The notes under the pieces were generated by a model. That model searched no databases and was not told the origin of the DNA. It saw only the letters and a list, made by a program, of their open reading frames with translations. A stretch of 62,128 nucleotides of DNA, the filler included, from Pirum gemmata (lineage: Eukaryota): assembly GCA_002812295.1 (NCBI GenBank). It is 15 parts of 15 records of this genome, joined end to end, with 100 filler letters (N's around TTAATTAATTAA, not from the genome) between each part and the next. Parts side by side here need not be neighbours in the genome. Positions count along the whole stretch, not along the records: positions 8,202 to 12,182 come from PDIN01001626.1; 14 more parts are not named here. One strand, 5' to 3'. Shown piece after piece: positions 7,229-61,715 of this stretch. Numbering within the stretch: position 1 is the stretch's first letter; the number at the start of each line of letters is the position of its first letter. Made by a program: the position numbers and the translations under genes.

Positions 7229-7500
7229 AGACCCTAACCCTCTAACCCTAACCCTAACCCTAACCCTAACCCTAACCCTAACCCTAACCCTAACCCTAAC
7301 CCTAACCCTAACCCTAACCCTAACCCTAACCCTAACCCNNNNNNNNNNNNNNNNNNNNNNNNNNNNNCTAACCCTAACCCTAACCCTAACCCTAACCCTA
7401 ACCCTAACCCTAACCCTAACCCTAACCCAGACCCTCAGAGCCCAGACTCTAACCCTAACCCTAACCCTAACCCTAACCCAGACCCTAACCCTAACCCCTA
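7229..7500 (+). repeat. Interstitial telomeric (CCCTAA)n array with internal gap
   Basis: Direct reading; shorter degenerate array at 6480-6545. Confidence 0.95.
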
Positions 7501-8082: not shown

Positions 8083-8974
8083 GTATTATATAAAAGAATA
8101 ANNNNNNNNNNNNNNNNNNNNNNNNNNNNNNNNNNNNNNNNNNNNTTAATTAATTAANNNNNNNNNNNNNNNNNNNNNNNNNNNNNNNNNNNNNNNNNNN
8201 NATAATAATAATAATAATATCAAAAAATGACCAAAAATGGCTATAAAATAACCAAAAATGGCTATAAAATCAACAAAATTATCAAAAAATCAACAAAACA
8301 GTAAGCAAAATTAGCAAAAAATGACCAAAAAATCAACAAAATTATCAAAAAAATCAACAAAAAAGTAAGCAAAATAGCCAAAAAAAATAAGTAAAAACGT
8401 CCAAAACATAAGCCTAAAAATGATAAAAAGTACCAAAAAAAAAAAAAAAAATCAAAAAATAAAAAAAAAAAAATAANNNNNNNNNNNNNNNNNNNNNNNN
8501 NNNNNNNNNNNNNNNNNNNNNNNNNNNNNNNNNNNNNNNNNNNNNNNNNNNNNNNNNNNNNNNNNNNNNNNNNNNNNNNNNNNNNNNNNAAAAAAAAAAT
8601 TAACGAAACTGAAATTACCCCTCTATTTTTTTTCATTTATTATTATAATCAAACTGGGATATTGGTTTGAAATTTTCGAAATTTTTCGATCTAATTTTAA
8701 GTATTGACTCATTTTTGATTTCATTAAAAAATTCTTAGAAATTTCATAGAAAAAACTTAAAGCTCGAAAAAAAAAATCAATCATTTCAAAATTGTCACTC
8801 TTTAAAAATTAAGAACGAGCTGTTTGATTTGATTATGTTTTCCCGTATCTCTGTACGGTGAGAGGGGCTAAATAACTGCTAAATAGGTCGTACCTGGCCG
8901 GGTAAATTTTTTTTTTTTGCCCAGTCCCTTGGCTTGCCTAATATACATATATACATACAAACACTTTTAAAAAA

Positions 8975-9122
8975 AACATCCTACTTTTTTTTACTAATTA
9001 AAAGTCCAACCTTTTTTTTTATTATGTTCGAAAATTTCAAATCTATTAAATATTTATATTTGAAAACTAAATGAAAAATTGTGAATCTCAAAAGTTAGAC
9101 GTTTTTTTAAATTGTTTGCATC
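8975..9122 (+). mobile_element. MITE family G copy; others at 7690-7790, 35513-35682, 36288-36462, 57480-57677
   Basis: Shared TGTTCGAAAATT...GTGAA.CCCAAAAGTTGG.CGTTTTT...TTGTTTGC; inverted AAACAAT...AAAAACGTCC at the other end. Confidence 0.7.
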
Positions 9123-9404
9123 TTTATGACGTAATGTCACCTTTTCTTATATTTATGTCACTCCTCCGGCTTGGTGACTGTGCCAAAGCAATATCTAAAA
9201 CAAGAAAAAAAAGTATTAATAAATATTTCTACGGTTTTATATTACGTCATCATATTTTTTTTAAGAGTGATTATTATTTATTTTCGCAATTTTGCCGCGT
9301 TTTTTAAAGTAATATAATTAAAAGATTTTCGTTATATTCGCATTAGTTTCGTATTTTTTTCCTCTCTCTTTTTTTTGAACACCTTTTCAGGTTGTTTTTT
9401 TATC

Positions 9405-9414
9405 CGACGTGGCA
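9405..9414 (+). promoter_or_regulatory. UPRE/XBP1-like ACGT site CGACGTGGCA ~300 bp upstream of the bZIP ATG; CRE-like ATGACGTAAT (9126-9135) and its inverse (9241-9250)
   Basis: 9/10 match to TGACGTGGCA; function is inference. Confidence 0.3.
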
Positions 9415-9714
9415 TTCCCGATTTTTTTTTTTTTTTTTTTACAAAAATAGCAAAAAAAAAAAGGAAAAAAAAATAATAAAAAAAAAAAAAAAAAAAAGAA
9501 AAACTTGAAAAAAGAGTAAAAATAAAAAAATGAAAAAAATTGAAAAAATAAATTTATTTGAAATTTGAAGAAAATGAATTTTTTTGAAATTGTTAAATGT
9601 CGGAAATAATAAATAATAATAAATAATAATAAGTAATAAATAATAATAATAATAAATAATTAAAATAATAAATATTAATAATTAACAATAATTAATCATA
9701 AATAATAAACAATA

Positions 9715-10149
9715 ATGTCTATAAAAGCTGAAACTGCGTTTAAGCAGGGTCCACTATTTAATAAAAAAAAAACAATAACAAAAAAGAAAAAACCTTTAAC
9801 TTTAGAAGAAAAGCATGAAAAAAGGAAAGCCCAAAATCGAAGATCAGCACAGAGAGTTCGAGACTTAAAGAAGAATGTGGTTGAAAATAGAGAATTGCTT
9901 TTAGAAAAAAATATCGAATACACTAAAGAAAAGCGCTCACAACTTCGTGTTTTGGAAAATAAAAACAAACAATTAAAAGCAGAGTTGAGTAAACTGATAT
10001 TTTTGTTTGAAGATGCTATTGAACAATGCAATGACACAGAGAAAAGAACGAATTTGGAAAGAAAACTTGAAAATATGAAAGGACAGTTGAATGTTATGAA
10101 TGAAAATAAATCAGTAACAAAGGCGGATATACAAGAACAACAACAGCAA

Positions 10150-10181
<32 letters not shown>

Positions 10182-10225
10182 ACAACAACAGCAGCAGCAA
10201 AAACAGCAACAACAGCAACAACAGC

Positions 10226-10276
<51 letters not shown>

Positions 10277-10980
10277 CACAAGTACAAGACGACTATGAAA
10301 TTATTCATTCTTGTGGTTCTTCTTTTTCTATTGAAAGCCCTGTTGCTTATTTTGAAAATTCATATTCGCCTATTGATTCTGGAGATGAAGCTCCTACAAT
10401 TCAATTCAACTATTTTCAAAATACTATTTCCGACGCTGATGTATTTCCTCCTGTCTCGAAATGTTATACACAAACCGATAACATGATGGTAGATAACAAT
10501 AGTGTTGATTTTGAAAATTTTAGTTTTAACGATATTTATGTTCCTGATGGCAAGGATTTGTTCAATCTTGTACCTATGGCAATAGAAGACTATGATGCAA
10601 ATAGGAATGAAATGTTTAAGTTGTTCAGTTTTTCAACTACAAAAGAAGAAGATACTAAATCAGCGAACAGTATTATTGATAATAATACTACCGATTCAAT
10701 GGAAATGGACGAATTATTGACTGGTGCTGATTTCAGTGTTGTACCGGGAACTCCTCCTTTGATTAACAATCTTCTATTCAAAAATGACAAAAATAATGGT
10801 AATTCTGAAATAATAACACCCGACAGCTCTGACGATAATGTTTTGGTTTTAGACGAAGCTAATATCAAAATTACTCCACCTTCGTCTCTTAGCTCTCTTG
10901 ATATGAATGACTATACTATACCTGTAGAGAATGGTAGTAACAACAATACTAAAAATGACTTTGTTAACTCACCACCTCTT

Positions 10981-11013
<33 letters not shown>

Positions 11014-12066
11014 CCTGTGTTTGTTCCATCACCTGTCTTAGGTGATAGTAACTCAATTTCCGACATGATTTTGACTTTGAATGGAATCGTTCGCGAAAGC
11101 GAAAGTACGAACAGCACAGCTTACTTGAATTTTACGGAAATGAATTTGGATAATGGGAATAATGAAAATAACGGCAATAGCCAAATTGATGTGGAACTTA
11201 TCACGACGCCATCAACTGAAAACTTTGGAGTAATGAACAATACAATCAATGCTAACGAATTGACTAATACCACTGACAACAACAACCTCAATAACACTAA
11301 AGAGACTTGCGAGTCTGCAGCACTCGCATCTACTATACCTCTGCAGCAGGGCTCTTTGGAGACGTTGTACCAGTCTTTGGTGGCCTTCGTACAAGTAATG
11401 ATATCAGTTTGTTCACAGAAACAAACTTCAGTTTCCTCAGTTGTGATGAAAGTACTATCGAATTGGATAATGCCATTTTCAACAACCCAAACAACAACAA
11501 CAACAACAACAACACCAACAACACCAACACCCCCAACACCCCCACCATCAACAACTCCGCCTCCATCACCACCCCCACCATCCCCAGTAACTACTATACC
11601 GACAACAACAACAACATCAACACCTGTGTCAACCCCAACCCAACCAACCCGACCAACCCCACCAACCCCACCAACCCCACCAACATCAACCCCACCAACA
11701 TCAACCCCACCAACAACACCACCTCCACTAACATCAACAACAATAATACCACCAACAAAAACAATACCAACTTCACCACCAACAACACCAACACCACCAA
11801 CACCACCAACACAATCAACACCAACATCAACACCAACATCAACACCAACATCAACACCAACATCAACGCCATCGACACCACCACCACCACCACCAACAGT
11901 GGAATATTTCGAACACCCACCAACCACAATTACAACAACTCTGACGACTACAACAGCAAAACTGAAACCGATTTTGAACAATATCCACACGTTGTTCACA
12001 TATGTGACCGAGAAAGGGAAAGAAGAGAAAATAGTGTACCATTCTTTTTGTAACGAAATTTATTAA
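9715..12066 (+). CDS. XBP1: XBP1/HAC1-like bZIP transcription factor, unspliced form (783 aa)
   Basis: LTLEEKHEKRKAQNRRSAQRVRDLKK resembles XBP1 LSPEEK..RRKLKNRVAAQTARDRKK; ESAALASTIPLQQ resembles XBP1u ESAALRLRAPLQQ; IRE1-type intron present; polyQ and Thr/Pro tracts. Confidence 0.9.
11318..11343 (+). other. 26-nt IRE1-type unconventional intron
   Basis: Two CTG^CAGC loops (11315-11321, 11341-11347); stems TGCGAGT/ACTCGCA and CCT/AGG; basal stem CTAAAGAG/CTCTTTGG. Confidence 0.9.
11344..12053 (+). CDS. XBP1: Spliced-form C-terminal frame; predicted CDS join(9715..11317,11344..12053), 770 aa
   Basis: Excision gives ESAAGLFGDVVP... (human XBP1s ESAAG); same frame as ORF-track 11307..12053; acidic/aromatic patches such as DESTIELDNAIF and TETDFEQYP. 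Confidence 0.85.
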
Positions 12067-13453
12067 CAAAAAGAAAAAAAAAAATATTAATATTTGGATT
12101 TGTAATCTATATAATAAAATTGTTTTTCCGATTAATTTTTTTAAAATTTACTTTATTAACAAGGTATAATTATTATTATTATNNNNNNNNNNNNNNNNNN
12201 NNNNNNNNNNNNNNNNNNNNNNNNNNTTAATTAATTAANNNNNNNNNNNNNNNNNNNNNNNNNNNNNNNNNNNNNNNNNNNNAATAATAATAATTTATTG
12301 TATTATACCAAAAATTTTTTTTTACCTATTTTAAACTTACGAGCAATTCTTAAAAGCTGCTTTCTCCCCTGACTAGAAGTTCCTTGGAGTATATTTTGAA
12401 TATAATGTTATATATAGCTAATTTATTATATTAGTGCATATTAATATATCATAGTAAAGAAAACAAAAATATAAATGAATATCACATAAAATAATATTAA
12501 TAATAGTAATTAAATATTTCCAATAACACTCTTTCTTTTTGATTACTCGAGCTCATACCAAAGTGCTGTAAAGCTATCAATGAAATTTTATTTTTATTTC
12601 AAATTTTTCTTGTCAATATTTATTTATTTTTATATCTACATATCATTATTTTTACTATTTGCTGTGGATAGAGCTTGCAGTAATCTATTATTAGAGTTTA
12701 GAGAAGTTTGCATGATGGGTGAATCAAAATTACTATATCATGCTGTGAAGTATCCTCACTCCTAATATTCAGGTTTTTTTTTATTTTTGAATTTGGACCT
12801 TGTTTGTCCGTTGATTGTTTTCTTTTATTTGTCATTTTATATTTATTTCAATAGTTTATTGTGTTTATTATTTTTTTCTTTGTGTTTTTTTTTCTTTAGA
12901 AAGTCTGACTGGCAGCTGGCTGGAGCCTGGGTTTTTTCATGAGATTACCCTAACTGGTTTTTTGGTGTAGTTCAAAAAAGTTGTCAAAACGACTCCAAAA
13001 TGACTGTTCATGTTTCTTTTTTTTTACAATGGGTTTTTATGTTACGATGTTGAAATAAAAATCGAAGTTGCAACTTAAGACTATATCTACAAATCCTAAG
13101 TAACAAGTATTGATAACAAACTAATATATACATATATATACCCATTTATTAAACATTACTGTTAAAATTAACTAATGAACCATTTAAAAAGACAAAAAAA
13201 AGAATTATTATATATCGAGTAAAAAGTCATATGTTTGTAACTTTTGAGCTTTTCATATATATAGTGCAAAGGATGTTTAGTTTGCATTAACCTAAATCGA
13301 ACCCGTAGAATCCGAAAATGATATCATTATATTTATCGCAAATCATTATTTTTGGTATCAAAATTTATTTATATCATAATAATGCGATTTATAAATAAAA
13401 CGAACAAAAAGTAAAAAAAAAACATCGGCTCGAAACAATAATCTATGGACTAT

Positions 13454-14970: not shown

Positions 14971-15071
14971 AGGGTTAGGGTTAGGGTTAGGGTTAGGGTT
15001 AGGGTTAGGGTTAGGGTTAGGGTTAGGGTTAGGGTTAGGGTTAGGGTTAGGGTTAGGGTTAGGGTTAGGGT
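14971..15071 (+). repeat. Interstitial (TTAGGG)n array
   Basis: Direct reading. Confidence 0.95.
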
Positions 15072-28573: not shown

Positions 28574-28878
28574 AAGATCGGAATTTAAACTGTACGTGGT
28601 ATGTTGTGTTGGTCACATTACAAGTTTAGACAACGCTTGGTAACCAAAAGCGAATTGTTTAGTGATTGTAAAGTGATTGAATGTGATAAGTCTTTTAAAC
28701 TTCAAAATGCTGTGGATATTGTGGTGTCATTAATAATAGACTTGGTGGTAGTAAAGTATTTATGTGTAAACAAAAGTTTAATGCCCGTGGCCGTGATATT
28801 CACGCTGCTCGAAATATTTTTTTACGTTATTTAACACGTAATAAAATAGTATTTCGAAATTCGGCTCGAATTCCCTAA
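28574..28878 (+). pseudogene. Fanzor/TnpB RNA-guided nuclease C-terminal relic
   Basis: KIGI*TVRGMLCWSHYKFRQRL...VIECDKSF / frameshift at 28697-28698 / TSKCCGYCG...LGGSKVFMC...RDIHAARNIFLR. Confidence 0.88.
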
Positions 28879-39359: not shown

Positions 39360-40007
39360 TCAGCAGTTACCTACAGTATAAAAATCATAAGTTTTCCCGC
39401 TTGCCAGTTCGGTTTCTTGGTGGCCATTTTGATATAAAGTACATCTCGCTGCAGTCCCCCATATGAACCCAACACAAGGATCGTTGAATTTACACTGTTC
39501 AAAGCAGTCGTCCACACTATTAACAAATCTTAAATCAACAAGTTTATTAGCTTGGTAGTATTGAAATCCACTCATATCACCTTGGTGAGAGATTCTCCAG
39601 GAATATTCGTTAGCGTATTTAGTTTTACATTTTTGGTTAACGTGAGGGGGTGGAGTTGAACATGATGTCATAGTGTAGACGTCATAAGTTTTACCACTTG
39701 CAATTTTTTCATTGTTTCCTTGTTGAAATAATTCACAGCGACCAGGAGTGCCCCATAAGTAAGCCACGCAAGGTGCGTTGAATTTACATTGTTCAAAACA
39801 ATCGTTTTCTGATTTAACATTAGCATTACTGATGACTGCTAACTTATTAACAGACAAGTAGTTGAAACCGGCCATACTTCCTCGATGATCAAGTTGCCAT
39901 TTGTATTCATTAGGGTACAATTGTTTGCATCGGTTGTCTACGGCTGCACCATAAACGGTAGTAGAAGCGAAAGCCAAAAAGCCAACGGTAGAAAATACTT
40001 GCATCAT
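39360..40007 (-). CDS. Secreted protein with two Cys-rich PAN/apple-like repeats
   Basis: Signal peptide; duplicated C..Y.NEY.W...DCFEQCKFN.PCV...WGT..RC.L module. Confidence 0.85.
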   Translation of the reverse strand: MMQVFSTVGFLAFASTTVYGAAVDNRCKQLYPNEYKWQLDHRGSMAGFNYLSVNKLAVISNANVKSENDCFEQCKFNAPCVAYLWGTPGRCELFQQGNNEKIASGKTYDVYTMTSCSTPPPHVNQKCKTKYANEYSWRISHQGDMSGFQYYQANKLVDLRFVNSVDDCFEQCKFNDPCVGFIWGTAARCTLYQNGHQETELASGKTYDFYTVGNC

Positions 40008-47360: not shown

Positions 47361-47884
47361 AATAGCAATATAATATCGATGTAATGTATACACATATATA
47401 TCATTGTCATTGGATTGTAATTAAAAGCAGCTGTACAATTGTTCATGTATTATAATATAAATATGCCTAAAAAACAATAATAAATTAACATGCCAAATTG
47501 AATAGAAAGCTTTAATCCCAGATAAGAAGGAGGTTATAAACGTCCCCTTAATTTTAGCCATAAATCCTAACCGTAACATTCGAACTCCTAATTGTAACTA
47601 ACTCCAAGTCCTAACCCTAAATCTGACCCGATTCTCGATTCAGAAAGAGCTGAATGACACTTTCTATAGTCTTCGAAACATAACCATCGATATGCAATCC
47701 ATACCTTACCGTAATCCTAACTTTAATCCCAATCCTACCTTAATTATAACTAACCCCGACCCCAACTTCTTATTCGAACTCCTAACTGTAACTAACTTCA
47801 GGTCCTAACCCTAAGTCTGACCCAATTCTCGATTTAGAAAAAACTGAACAACATTTTCCATAGATTCCTCAAAACTTGTACTAA

Positions 47885-48030
47885 CATCATAACCAGTTCC
47901 TTTATAAGCCCAAGTAAGCATAAGGTTATCAACATCCCCAAATTGTTCAACTTTTAGGCCGTTATAATCAAGGGTATCATTCAGGTTTTTGGTATAGTTG
48001 TATTTGTGGCAACGCTCAGCATAAGTGTCT
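47885..48030 (-). CDS. Possible internal exon of an unknown protein
   Basis: Coding-like island TYAERCHKYNY...LMLTWAYKGTGYD with possible AAG acceptor and GTTAGT donor. Confidence 0.35.
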
Positions 48031-51000
48031 TGTTTAAAAATCGACAAATTATTATTATTATTAATTAATTTTATTATTATTGATTATTTTTATTATTAGT
48101 AATTATTTATATTATTAATTATTTTTATTATTATTAATTATTTTTATTATTATTAATTATTTTCATTATTATTAATTATTTTTATTTTTATTAATTATTT
48201 TTATTTTAGTTTAATTGTTATTAATCGATTATTAAATTATTATTATTGATTGATTATTGGGTTTGAGTCTGAGTTTCGGTTTTAGTTTTGGTTTTTAGTT
48301 TTTAGTTTTAGTTTGGGTTTGGGTTTGGGTTTTGGTTTTGGTTTTGGTTTTGGTTTTGGTTGTGGTTTTGGTTTTGGTTGTGGTTTTGGTTGTGATTGTG
48401 GTTTTGGTTTTGGTTTTGGTTTTGGCTTTGGTTTTGGTTTTGGTTTTGGTTTTGGTTTTGGTTATTAATAAAGGATAATACTGGTATGCAAAATATAACG
48501 ATATTAATGATAATGTTATTGATATTAATAATGATGTTGATATTGATAACTATATAGATATTGACACAAGGATAATGATACTATCCAAAACATAACGGTA
48601 TTAATAATGATAATGCTATTGATATTAAAAATGATGTTGACATTGGTATTGATATTGATATTGATATTGATATTGATATGGATATGGATATTGATGATAT
48701 TGATATTGATATTGATATGGATATTGACAAAGATGATAATACAAAATTTGGTTTTGGTTGCTTTGGTTGGTTAGGCTGTTTAAGTTGTTTTGTGCTTATA
48801 TATTACCAATCTCTTCTTTTTTTTCATATAAGAAAGTAGTATCGTAATAAGCAAAAATAGGTTTAGATTTTGCTAACATATAACCCATCTCAAAACTAGC
48901 ACCTACATCCATACTGGGACCTGGTTTCCGATAGAAAAACATTGTTAATTATAAAGAATAATAGGAATTTGAACATAATTATATTGTACGTATTATTTGG
49001 TCTATTANNNNNNNNNNNNNNNNNNNNNNNNNNNNNNNNNNNNNNNNNNNNTTAATTAATTAANNNNNNNNNNNNNNNNNNNNNNNNNNNNNNNNNNNNN
49101 NNNNNNNTGTTGTTGAGGCAAACTCGCGCAAACCAAGAAGCAAGAGGGAAACATTCTTCGCAAATGGTGGCTCGTTTGACTGCCAAAAAAAAGTCAATCG
49201 TAAAACAAAAAAAAAAAAAAAAAATGGGAACAAGGGGGTCAAATACCCCCCATTAGACCCCAATTTAAACCCGATCAAATGTAAAATACCCTTTTAAAAT
49301 TATACCCCCGAATTCCCCTTTTTGAAGGAAAGATAACACTGAGAGCGTTGGTTAAGTGTTGGCTACTATTCTAGCTAGCAAGGAGTATTAATAGGAAGTA
49401 GTGGTATTAGGGTTTAAAAATTATGGCCAGGGTTCTGTGACCCTGTTAGGGTTAGAGTAATGATTTTGGATAGAGTTAATTAAGGGTTAGGGTTAGGGTT
49501 AGGGCATGAAGCATGGTTAGAGTTGGGGTTAGAGAGCTGGTTAGAGTTAGAGTTAGAGTTTTAGAGTTAAGGTCAGAGTTAAGGCTAGGGTAGATCTGTT
49601 AGGGTTAGGGTTAGGGCTAGGGTTAGGGTTAGGATTTTAAGGTCAGGGTTAGGGTGCTGTTTCGTGTGTTCAATATTTATCCATTAATTTATTCATTAAA
49701 ATTTATTCATTAAAATTCTTTCATTAATTAAGATTTATTCACTATTTATTCATTAATTTATAAAATGTTATTCGTTAAATTTTTATTAAAAAATTTTTGT
49801 TTATTTATTTATATATGATAACCAAGGACTTCAAAAAAAAAACTTTTTTAAAGTCCTTGTGATATTATTGATATTATTAAAAAAATAGCTGAAAAAAGTT
49901 CTGAACAAAGTGAACTAAATGGAGAAAAAGCTATGATTGCTGGAGGGAGAAAAAGTAGTGAAAAAGCAGCTGAAAATTTAAAAGTAGTGAAAAAGTATTG
50001 AAAAGGTGCAGGAAAATAGCTAGGAAAATAGCCAGGAAAAAGTTAGGAAAATCAGTAAAATAAACAAATAAAGATATATGAGGCCTAAATAAGGCCACTT
50101 TGGCCGTGAAAAAAATGCTTCTTCCTGAAGTTCCAACTTCCGCTTCTAACTTTCAACCGGGGGAAAAAAACACTTTCAGCCAGACCAACTCCTGCTTCAA
50201 ACAACAGTCCAACTCCTCTTTCTAACTATATACAAGACTCTTGTTATTTATAATATTATGATAGCTAGCTAGTAGATATCTGCTGCCTACACCTTACGCG
50301 TATAAGTGTAAATATCTACTATTGTAGTTAATAATTTTAAACGGATACAATTTGAACATGATTATAATTTTATTAAAATGCCATATTAAAATCGAAGGGA
50401 TACAGACATGAGTCCTACCACGGTCACAAAGTAGTATCGTGATTTTCAGTTGTATAAATCCATTTCATTCAATTTTGTATATTTTATTAGAAAAATGTCG
50501 ACTTATTATTATAACCAACCAAATAAATATTCAGAGTGACAAAATAAATGAAAAGCACAATAGTAGTCTTGGATGAGCTATAGACCCCCCCCCCTCCCCC
50601 TCCTCTGGATATTATAATGACACCCTATGATACTACTATCTGATACTGCTAGTCCCGGGTCTAACTAGCTAGGGTTGGTCTAGCTAGATCTATGAGCCCT
50701 ACAAAATATGTAGTTAAACTATCTACCCCTAACCCTAACCCTAACCCTAACCCTAACCCTAACCCTAACCTAGTGTTATTAATTAACTATTATGATATTA
50801 ATTATAATGGTAGAAGAGTGTAGAAGTCTTATTTTTCAGAATTTAGCAGGGCTGCTACAGTGCTGCTACTAGCTAGATCGTGTTTTTCGATAGTGTTGTA
50901 CAGTTCAAAAACTGAAATAATATTATACCAAATATTAATTATTATTATGGTTGAACTATATCAGACATAGTTTAATTAATTTGGCATTTTATAATTAAAA

Positions 51001-53784: not shown

Positions 53785-54140
53785 GACCCTAACCCTAACC
53801 CTAACCCTAACCCTAACCGTAGCCGTAACCGTAACCCTCACCCTAACCTTAACCCTGGCCTTGGCGCTAACCCTCACCCTAACCTTAACCCTGACCTTGA
53901 CCCTAACCTTGACCCTGACCTTGACCCTAACCTTGTCCCTGACCTTGTCCCTAACCTTGCCCCTAACCTTGACTTTAACCTTAACCTTANCTAACCCTAA
54001 CCCTAACCCTAACCCTAACCCTAACCCTAACCCTAACCCTAACCCTAACCCTAACCCTAACCCTAACCCTAACCCTAACCCTAACCCTATTCCTAACTAG
54101 AACTATAACTATAACCCTAACACTAACTATAACCCTAAAC
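53785..54140 (+). repeat. (CCCTAA)n and variant hexamers at the start of the intron; other short arrays at 20361-20390, 38897-38925, 49483-49635, 50727-50772
   Basis: Direct reading. Confidence 0.9.
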
Positions 54141-55141: not shown

Positions 55142-55600
55142 TTATGCCAAAAATGGTTCAAATTGCAATGCTAATGGAGTACGAACAGGTGCCGCAATAC
55201 CAAACAAACGTACAATTCCATCACCAGCACACACAGTGGAGTCTAATTCAGAATCAGTACCTTGGAAACAAATTTTAGCTTTGTTCCAATTATCAGCCCC
55301 ATACACACTACCACTCATGTCAATATTAATGTCGGTTAGTTTTTGTATACCGGGAACTTGATACGGTTTACCGATAAAGGCACCCGTTCTTCGTTTTCCC
55401 GCTGGGCAATATTGGACATTTGTACCACACAACTGATGTATGGAAGAGCCACTGAAATCAGCAACCCAAACCATATCATTTCCATCTACAGCAATACCCC
55501 AAGGACCGTCCATATTTTTATGATGAAATTGATTAAGAAAAGTTCCATTTGGTGCATACAAAAAGACACTTCTACCTCCGAAAGAAGCCACCCAAGCATA
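55142..55600 (-). CDS. C-terminal part of a bacterial-like NHL-repeat beta-propeller (last exon or truncated gene)
   Basis: AWVASFG...GPWGIAVDGNDMVWVADF...LCG...CP.G...IDMSGSVYGADNW...STVCAGDG...FGIAAPVRTP. Confidence 0.75.
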   Translation of the reverse strand, partial: YAWVASFGGRSVFLYAPNGTFLNQFHHKNMDGPWGIAVDGNDMVWVADFSGSSIHQLCGTNVQYCPAGKRRTGAFIGKPYQVPGIQKLTDINIDMSGSVYGADNWNKAKICFQGTDSELDSTVCAGDGIVRLFGIAAPVRTPLALQFEPFLA

Positions 55601-61169: not shown

Positions 61170-61715
61170 ATTTGTGGCAAAAGTGTAGGATTTAATTTTT
61201 GTAAAATATGTGATGAAAAGTCCATTCATATAGTATTCTTATTTTAATTAATACAATCAAAACAAAATTTTGATTTTTAAATGTTACGTGACGTCCATTT
61301 AATCTTTTTCTCTGACGCCGTTAATAACGACTCATGTTTCATAAAATCTTCTTTTCCTTCCTTTATAATATCCGCTCCATCGATCATATACGGAAAATAT
61401 CAAAATTGAAAATATTATATCCAATAACAATTGCAACGTTTGGTCTTAATTTGTTTAATATTTCAACATAGCCGTAAAGTAACGACAATTCATCATCAAA
61501 CGCAATTAATTCAATAGCGTCATCTCCGCGTAAAGATTTTTCATTTACGTTACCAAGACTTATTAACAGTAATATTACGATAGTATTACGATACTCGTCA
61601 GTGTTAAAAATCTTGAAACGTTAGACTAATTTGAAATATTTCATTTATAGGTATGTCTAGACAGGAGGTGTGTCAGTCCTCCAAAAGGTACAAAGAGTTA
61701 TTACTGGCAAGAACA
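61170..61715 (-). pseudogene. polB: Decayed family-B DNA polymerase exonuclease domain, giant-virus (NCLDV)-like
   Basis: Across frameshifts: NEIFQISLTF / ISLGN...ELIAFDDELSLLYGYVEILNKLRPNVAIVIGYNIFNFD (ExoII motif at 61399-61422) / EKKIKWTS / FKNQNF...YKIKSY. Confidence 0.8.

Follow-up and report, generated by a model that had tools for sequence, protein, structure and literature searches.

IRE1-dependent splicing has been established for animals, fungi, plants, and green algae, and finding this well-known mechanism in an opisthokont is to be expected. The locus described here raises the more specific question of whether an XBP1-like bZIP gene from a unicellular lineage carries an intron of this type with an animal-type signature outside animals, and how such a switch would operate in a protein of altered architecture. 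The preliminary description had proposed exactly such an intron, and the sequence tests reported below support it and narrow the lineage to the Ichthyosporea. Judged from these tests, IRE1-type splicing of the Pirum gemmata bZIP mRNA is highly probable. As the best explanation of the whole we consider it probable that a likely IRE1 cut under ER stress swaps a predicted anchor tail for a soluble tail; towards the anchor-removal detail of this switch, as it would follow from the predicted protein, we lean slightly.

The predicted bifurcated stem-loop lies at 11297..11359 on the plus strand (as do all features of this gene) of the window, by which we mean the whole stretch of DNA that was analyzed, with a length of 62,128 nt. 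As described before, two 7-nt loops with the cut pattern CUG^CAGC are positioned 26 nt apart (CTGCAG starts at 11315 and 11341), and the stems originally noted do pair: 7 bp in hairpin 1 (11308-11328; 11308-11314/11322-11328), 3 bp in hairpin 2 (11338-11350; 11338-11340/11348-11350), and 8 bp, one of them G-U, in the basal stem (11297-11304/11352-11359). The CxGxxG 7-nt loop motif, named for the loops of IRE1-spliced bZIP mRNAs in the accessible part of PMC11077094, is present twice, both loops reading CUGCAGC. With the cut site placed after loop base 3 by analogy with XBP1, a 26-nt non-spliceosomal intron is predicted at 11318..11343, and because of a 9-nt direct repeat at both intron ends, neighboring cut registers would yield one and the same product. 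A spliceosomal reading was considered and rejected: among 25 frame-shifting GT/GC-AG candidates nearby none is 26 nt long, and the sole GT donor next to the hairpins departs from the consensus.

A scan of the whole metagenome collection with the two-loop motif of the window identified 16 loci, in 13 of which an XBP1-type bZIP is encoded in the same frame; the remaining three are an intron-split XBP1 gene (L015), a truncated L001-type copy (L013), and a locus without assignment (L007). Since their basic regions match XBP1-labelled rows in PMC4736632, we read these comparison loci as presumable animal XBP1. Their introns measure 20–29 nt, and the geometry of the window element equals that of the vertebrate-like L015 (26 nt, 3-bp second stem), which resembles the human row of the PMC4736632 table.

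Two hairpins and a closing basal stem, a feature of the IRE1-spliced class, are present here, with a weak hairpin 2. Calculated in 160- and 350-nt contexts, pair probabilities amount to 0.84–0.95 for the basal stem, 0.70–0.88 for hairpin 1, and 0.04–0.05 for hairpin 2, whose 7-nt-loop form lies about 2 kcal/mol above the minimum-energy fold; among the comparison loci, the pair probability of hairpin 2 ranges from 0.01 to 0.92. In its folding energy, the 76-nt stretch is ordinary (z -0.99; 35 of 200 shuffles fold equally well). In the Rfam comparison that had been proposed as a check, RF04247 matches 11298-11358 with 34.8 bits (E 2.4e-4) and is the sole Rfam match with E <=1 in 10500-12500 (2001 bases), but the score stays below the gathering cut-off of 41. 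On 12 of the 16 comparison loci (four near-copies of L002 were omitted), RF04247 scores 32.7–59.5 bits, 6 of the 12 likewise falling short of 41, and the score of the Pirum gemmata element falls inside this range of XBP1-type loci. In 11 comparison loci, with the window excluded, all 9 of 9 basal-stem pairs are changed on both sides, i.e., the stem covaries. Little weight is attached to two further counts that are partly circular, namely the single match of the two-loop motif in the window versus none in 100 shuffles, the motif having been derived from the window, and the 35.4 bits of model R1 on the window (runner-up 8.0), the motif having chosen the loci of R1.

Excision of 11318-11343 does lead into a second frame open to 12053, as had been claimed, and converts the 783-aa product of the unspliced reading frame (9715..12066) into one of 770 aa. 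The first 536 residues are common to both products, followed in the spliced form by an N/T-rich tail of 234 new residues (11344..12053) that overlaps the unspliced tail. A frame change behind an upstream bZIP upon removal of the intron, another feature of the IRE1-spliced class, is hence found here as well, with the bZIP itself being weak. The second frame contains 70 stops in 9715-11300, the last of them inside the basal stem, and none in 11301-12050, i.e., its stop-free part of 250 codons begins exactly with the basal stem; in the third frame, the tail region contains 13 stops. Together with the RF04247 match, this speaks against a mere chance arrangement. When the unspliced tail was shuffled synonymously according to whole-frame codon usage (5000 trials), the second frame was open in 0.14% of cases, and in the reciprocal shuffle test the value was 0.42%; if codon usage is taken from the tail alone, 13% of shuffles leave the second frame open, which falls short of significance (P 0.13). 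The spliced product would escape gene predictors, and the unspliced protein is absent as an exact sequence from a collection of 15 billion proteins.

Four sequencing runs contain words of 10300-11500. Two contigs of run X1, which we guess to be RNA, cover 10300-10968 and 11022-11500 of the unspliced frame without differences, and one of them spans the intron in unspliced form at a depth of 680. No spliced joint was found in the assembled contigs, where X1 spans the site unspliced; contigs drop and can miss minor forms, and the runs include no stress sample. Run X2 provides 184 identical bases away from the intron site at a depth of 3.8, whereas X3, with a small share of the words, and X4 yielded no contig here; X2 and X3 give no evidence of a relative. 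The exclusively unspliced contig sequence, together with the weak second hairpin, a degenerate proximal zipper, and an unusual Val48 (see below), could also be accommodated by assuming that the hairpins are a relic, either disused or cut by IRE1 for decay of the mRNA (RIDD), and that the divergent bZIP is not a UPR activator. We consider this improbable, as both loops are intact and spaced at 3n+2, the basal stem is intact too, and two open frames overlap for about 235 codons in an AT-rich genome.

The bZIP domain itself (aa 27-98, 9793..10008) is divergent; evidence for it comes from Pfam bZIP_1, the Atlas, an alignment, and a profile. Pfam bZIP_1 matches the N-terminal 132 aa with E 0.038, below cut-off, and Pfam on the whole protein returns a poly-Q artefact alone; the Atlas matches listed for the bZIP region are mostly bZIP clusters (0.86–0.92). 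A profile built from 10 distinct comparison loci assigns 15.7 bits to the window bZIP, and the lone match among 1.84 billion representatives, P0001 (E 8.9e-4), scores 60.5 bits on this XBP1 profile. Solved-structure searches gave insignificant matches only (CREB, E 0.5 and 1.2), and the AlphaFold model, one long helix with pLDDT 93, is uninformative on family. The basic region (N41-R49) is of the XBP1-type AQxxRDxKK, with an unusual Val48 before the conserved Arg. In the zipper, the d positions R59, N66, K73, L80, L87, and L94 (register read from sequence) begin with three polar residues, so that the proximal zipper appears degenerate. Further downstream, a poly-glutamine tract (aa 142-187, 10138..10275) is followed by an acidic N/T/S-rich middle region (10285..11310; 54 D+E versus 12 K+R in 342 aa), which is contained in both forms of the protein and may serve as an activation domain. 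Upstream of the gene, the only GACGTGG of the window occurs at 9406..9412 (+), 309 nt before the start codon, and two of the three TGACGTAA copies in the window lie at 9127-9134 and 9242-9249, within 600 nt before the bZIP start; we take all of these to be possible bZIP-binding sites, and GACGTGG, very tentatively, to be a possible autoregulatory site.

The extended signature NRx[SA]AQxxRDxKK, which is present in the basic region of the window, was found in 16 of 23 XBP1-labelled rows and, by eye, in none of the 84 other rows in the available part of the PMC4736632 table; the latter include all 24 Capsaspora and all 13 Monosiga rows of that part, and four of the misses among the XBP1-labelled rows are Ciona rows that are apparently mislabelled. 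Where the text of this bZIP survey is accessible, XBP1 is scored absent in Monosiga, Capsaspora, and yeast, and no ichthyosporean is sampled. XBP1-like bZIPs outside animals have been claimed earlier, as two Vitrella bZIPs were placed in the XBP1 clade according to the portion of PMC6213907 at hand, and an excerpt of PMC6025073 states the Dictyostelium IRE1 substrate as unidentified. Among the titles and abstracts that our literature searches listed, no IRE1 substrate is reported for an ichthyosporean or any other unicellular holozoan, and the available sections of PMC4891664 and PMC4739763 do not mention the point.

An animal-like gene in such a lineage immediately raises the issue of its origin. 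The window was put together from 15 pieces, each about 4 kb long, with an invariant spacer in between, the bZIP piece being 8202-12182; synteny arguments from window neighbors were rejected for the reason that the window is concatenated from separate pieces. For the same reason, the bZIP gene has no physical link to the Pirum-labelled gene of the window that encodes a secreted-looking protein with two PAN domains (39363-40007, minus strand), which leaves room for the suspicion that the bZIP piece is a contamination from an animal. We regard this as very improbable: the bZIP gene is contiguous, with no N between, with dispersed repeats common to 4 of the 14 other pieces (best match 84% over 183 nt, E 2e-52), each of these four pieces in turn shares repeats with the PAN piece, and the 4-mer correlation of the bZIP piece with the other pieces is 0.82 versus <=0.54 for the 16 comparison loci. 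Altogether, 14 of the 15 pieces form one connected set by repeat sharing, and 4-mer correlations among pieces are 0.80–0.96. The only relatives found for the PAN protein are named Pirum gemmata proteins; over 211 residues, its frame is identical to EukProt P0005, a protein that clusters with two named Pirum gemmata proteins, and the label Pgem denotes Pirum gemmata, Ichthyosporea, in the accessible part of the PMC5560861 supplement. Since shared repeats link the gene to the PAN piece and its 4-mer profile and GC3 are host-like, it very likely belongs to the ichthyosporean Pirum gemmata, a strong inference from sequence.

Exact look-up of ten further window frames retrieved a single one on record, as an unnamed EukProt protein. 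Other pieces contain a degraded TnpB/Fanzor-like zinc-finger fragment (28699-28875, plus strand; Pfam Cas12f1-like_TNB, E 1.5e-4) that is closely preceded by stops, and a fragment of the exonuclease domain of a family B DNA polymerase (61387-61620, minus strand; E 8.6e-7), possibly, at a guess, from a mobile element or virus-like insertion. A Nucleoside 2-deoxyribosyltransferase fragment (E 2.3e-6), from a family that is mostly bacterial, resides at 48799-48948 (minus strand), with a possible later exon at 47814-48083 (minus strand), and an NHL-repeat frame at 55145-55600 (minus strand) gives the impression of a bacterial secreted protein. Telomere-type (CCCTAA)n tracts of 4–16 units occur internally at 15 places, e.g., 7246-7335, 14975-15070, and 53995-54084.

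Even as a genuine Pirum gemmata gene, the switch might have been acquired long ago by horizontal transfer from an invertebrate host instead of holozoan inheritance. This idea draws on the animal-like splice-site sequence and basic-region signature, on the scoring of XBP1 as absent in Capsaspora and Monosiga cited above, on the description of Pirum gemmata from invertebrate guts (a reference title in the available part of PMC11286789), and on bZIP-region orthologue searches that identified no unicellular orthologue among 635 and 231 candidates. The basic region, however, is just 44–56% identical to the comparison loci, which average 80% among themselves, its NRR start is common with fungal HAC1 rows, as an outgroup would show, and GC3 (0.26–0.28) lies inside the 0.16–0.33 of other window frames. 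We therefore judge transfer to be unlikely, inheritance of the switch from a holozoan ancestor being most likely.

The fate of the two tails is central to what the switch may accomplish. In the unspliced frame only, a hydrophobic stretch (aa 548-566, 11356..11412) with a 19-residue hydropathy of 1.45, the protein maximum, is a predicted membrane anchor resembling HR2 of XBP1, to which it was matched by position and hydropathy only; at the equivalent position, hydropathy reaches 1.24–1.93 in 10 of 10 comparison loci. Poly-proline runs follow at aa 609-622 (11539..11580), a candidate pause site, with no PPP in the first 545 aa. No arrest motif of the WWGP..W type was found in the unspliced tail, which stops 217 aa past the hydrophobic stretch. 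Such an end is present in 8 of 10 comparison loci; the XBP1-type loci L003 and L016 have unspliced tails devoid of it, and the motif is thus not universal among the comparison loci. A profile comparison of the post-intron frames with animal XBP1 tails detected no similarity beyond the splice-site motif, nor did the Atlas return a usable match for the post-intron stretch. An acidic activation domain gained through splicing, as is typical of animal XBP1, was looked for in the spliced tail and is absent. As the search for an arrest motif and for an acidic tail in the spliced form found neither, we do not file the gene as a standard XBP1; by its sequence, the protein is XBP1-like.

One might nonetheless assume a real IRE1 switch of the animal kind, in which activation depends on the newly gained N/T-rich tail. 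In favor of this assumption, the spliced frame is open for all 234 new residues, the non-repetitive end of the tail is open more than expected (P 0.013), suggesting selection on the tail itself, and acidic and aromatic residues are found in its first and last parts. Against it, the tail contains 8% D+E compared with 13–20% in 10 of 10 comparison tails, a profile match is absent, and the acidic region is located before the intron, all of which makes this version rather doubtful. In our best reading, the anatomy would instead fit the anchor-removal logic of bZIP60, executed with animal-type letters.

We infer every step of the following mechanism beyond the anatomy. At rest, the unspliced mRNA would be translated and the hydrophobic stretch would bring the protein with its ribosome-bound mRNA to the ER; even without an animal arrest peptide, translation of the 217 codons and the poly-proline runs behind the stretch would leave enough time for this. 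Then IRE1 would cut both loops and an RNA ligase, either RtcB or Trl1, would join the exons, in line with what the available parts of PMC13149111 and PMC13247085 describe for IRE1, namely cleavage of two stem-loops and exon joining by a ligase. The 770-aa product, now lacking the anchor, would move to the nucleus, where, in the manner of plant bZIP60, the acidic region upstream of the intron and not the new tail would probably provide the activation, and ER chaperone genes would finally be induced. Extending this to evolution, we tentatively propose, at somewhat less than even confidence, that the XBP1 switch of the animal type, with its 26-nt intron, HR2-like anchor, and XBP1-type basic region, is pre-animal, stems from a holozoan ancestor, and has been kept here as a hybrid in which splicing frees a complete activator from the ER and a long poly-proline tail replaces the arrest peptide. 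If true, XBP1 and the way in which it is targeted to the membrane would have originated before multicellularity, and a culturable organism would be at hand for experiments on an animal-flavored IRE1 substrate.

Among known systems, metazoan XBP1 (IRE1alpha/RTCB; RF04247) shares with the Pirum gemmata gene the 26-nt intron, the twin 7-nt CNGCAGC loops with the same stem letters, the same frames with SAAL..LQQ in the unspliced one, the hydrophobic stretch just past the intron, and the AQxxRDxKK basic region. The two differ in that the Pirum gemmata intron lies 492 residues past the basic-region Asn (73–134 in 13 comparison loci), the unspliced tail comprises 251 aa (80–107) and does not end in WWGP..W fashion, the spliced tail is non-acidic, the proximal zipper appears degenerate, and the protein has poly-Q, poly-T, and poly-N expansions. 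For XBP1u, the accessible part of PMC11077094 describes delivery of the mRNA to the ER by HR2 together with an arrest peptide located about 50 aa further on, and an activation domain gained through splicing, whereas bZIP60 has an N-terminal activation domain and loses its anchor upon splicing. The same source proposes that tails of at least 100 residues make stalling dispensable, and reports a Pro-Pro end that causes stalling in Selaginella. Resemblance to plant bZIP60 and green-algal bZIP1, which is by description, concerns the (here predicted) removal of a hydrophobic anchor by splicing and, for bZIP60, an activation domain upstream of the intron (here a candidate one) as well as some orthologues with long tails and no stalling (as far as PMC11077094 is available). 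Unlike the Pirum gemmata gene with its animal-type splice-site and basic-region letters, Arabidopsis bZIP60 has a 23-nt intron. Fungal HAC1/HacA has the IRE1-type twin loops in a bZIP mRNA in common with our gene, and in two HAC1 rows also the NRR start of the basic region, but these rows read SREKKR in place of RDxKK; moreover, the yeast mRNA is targeted before translation (accessible part of PMC11077094), whereas the Pirum gemmata product carries a hydrophobic stretch.
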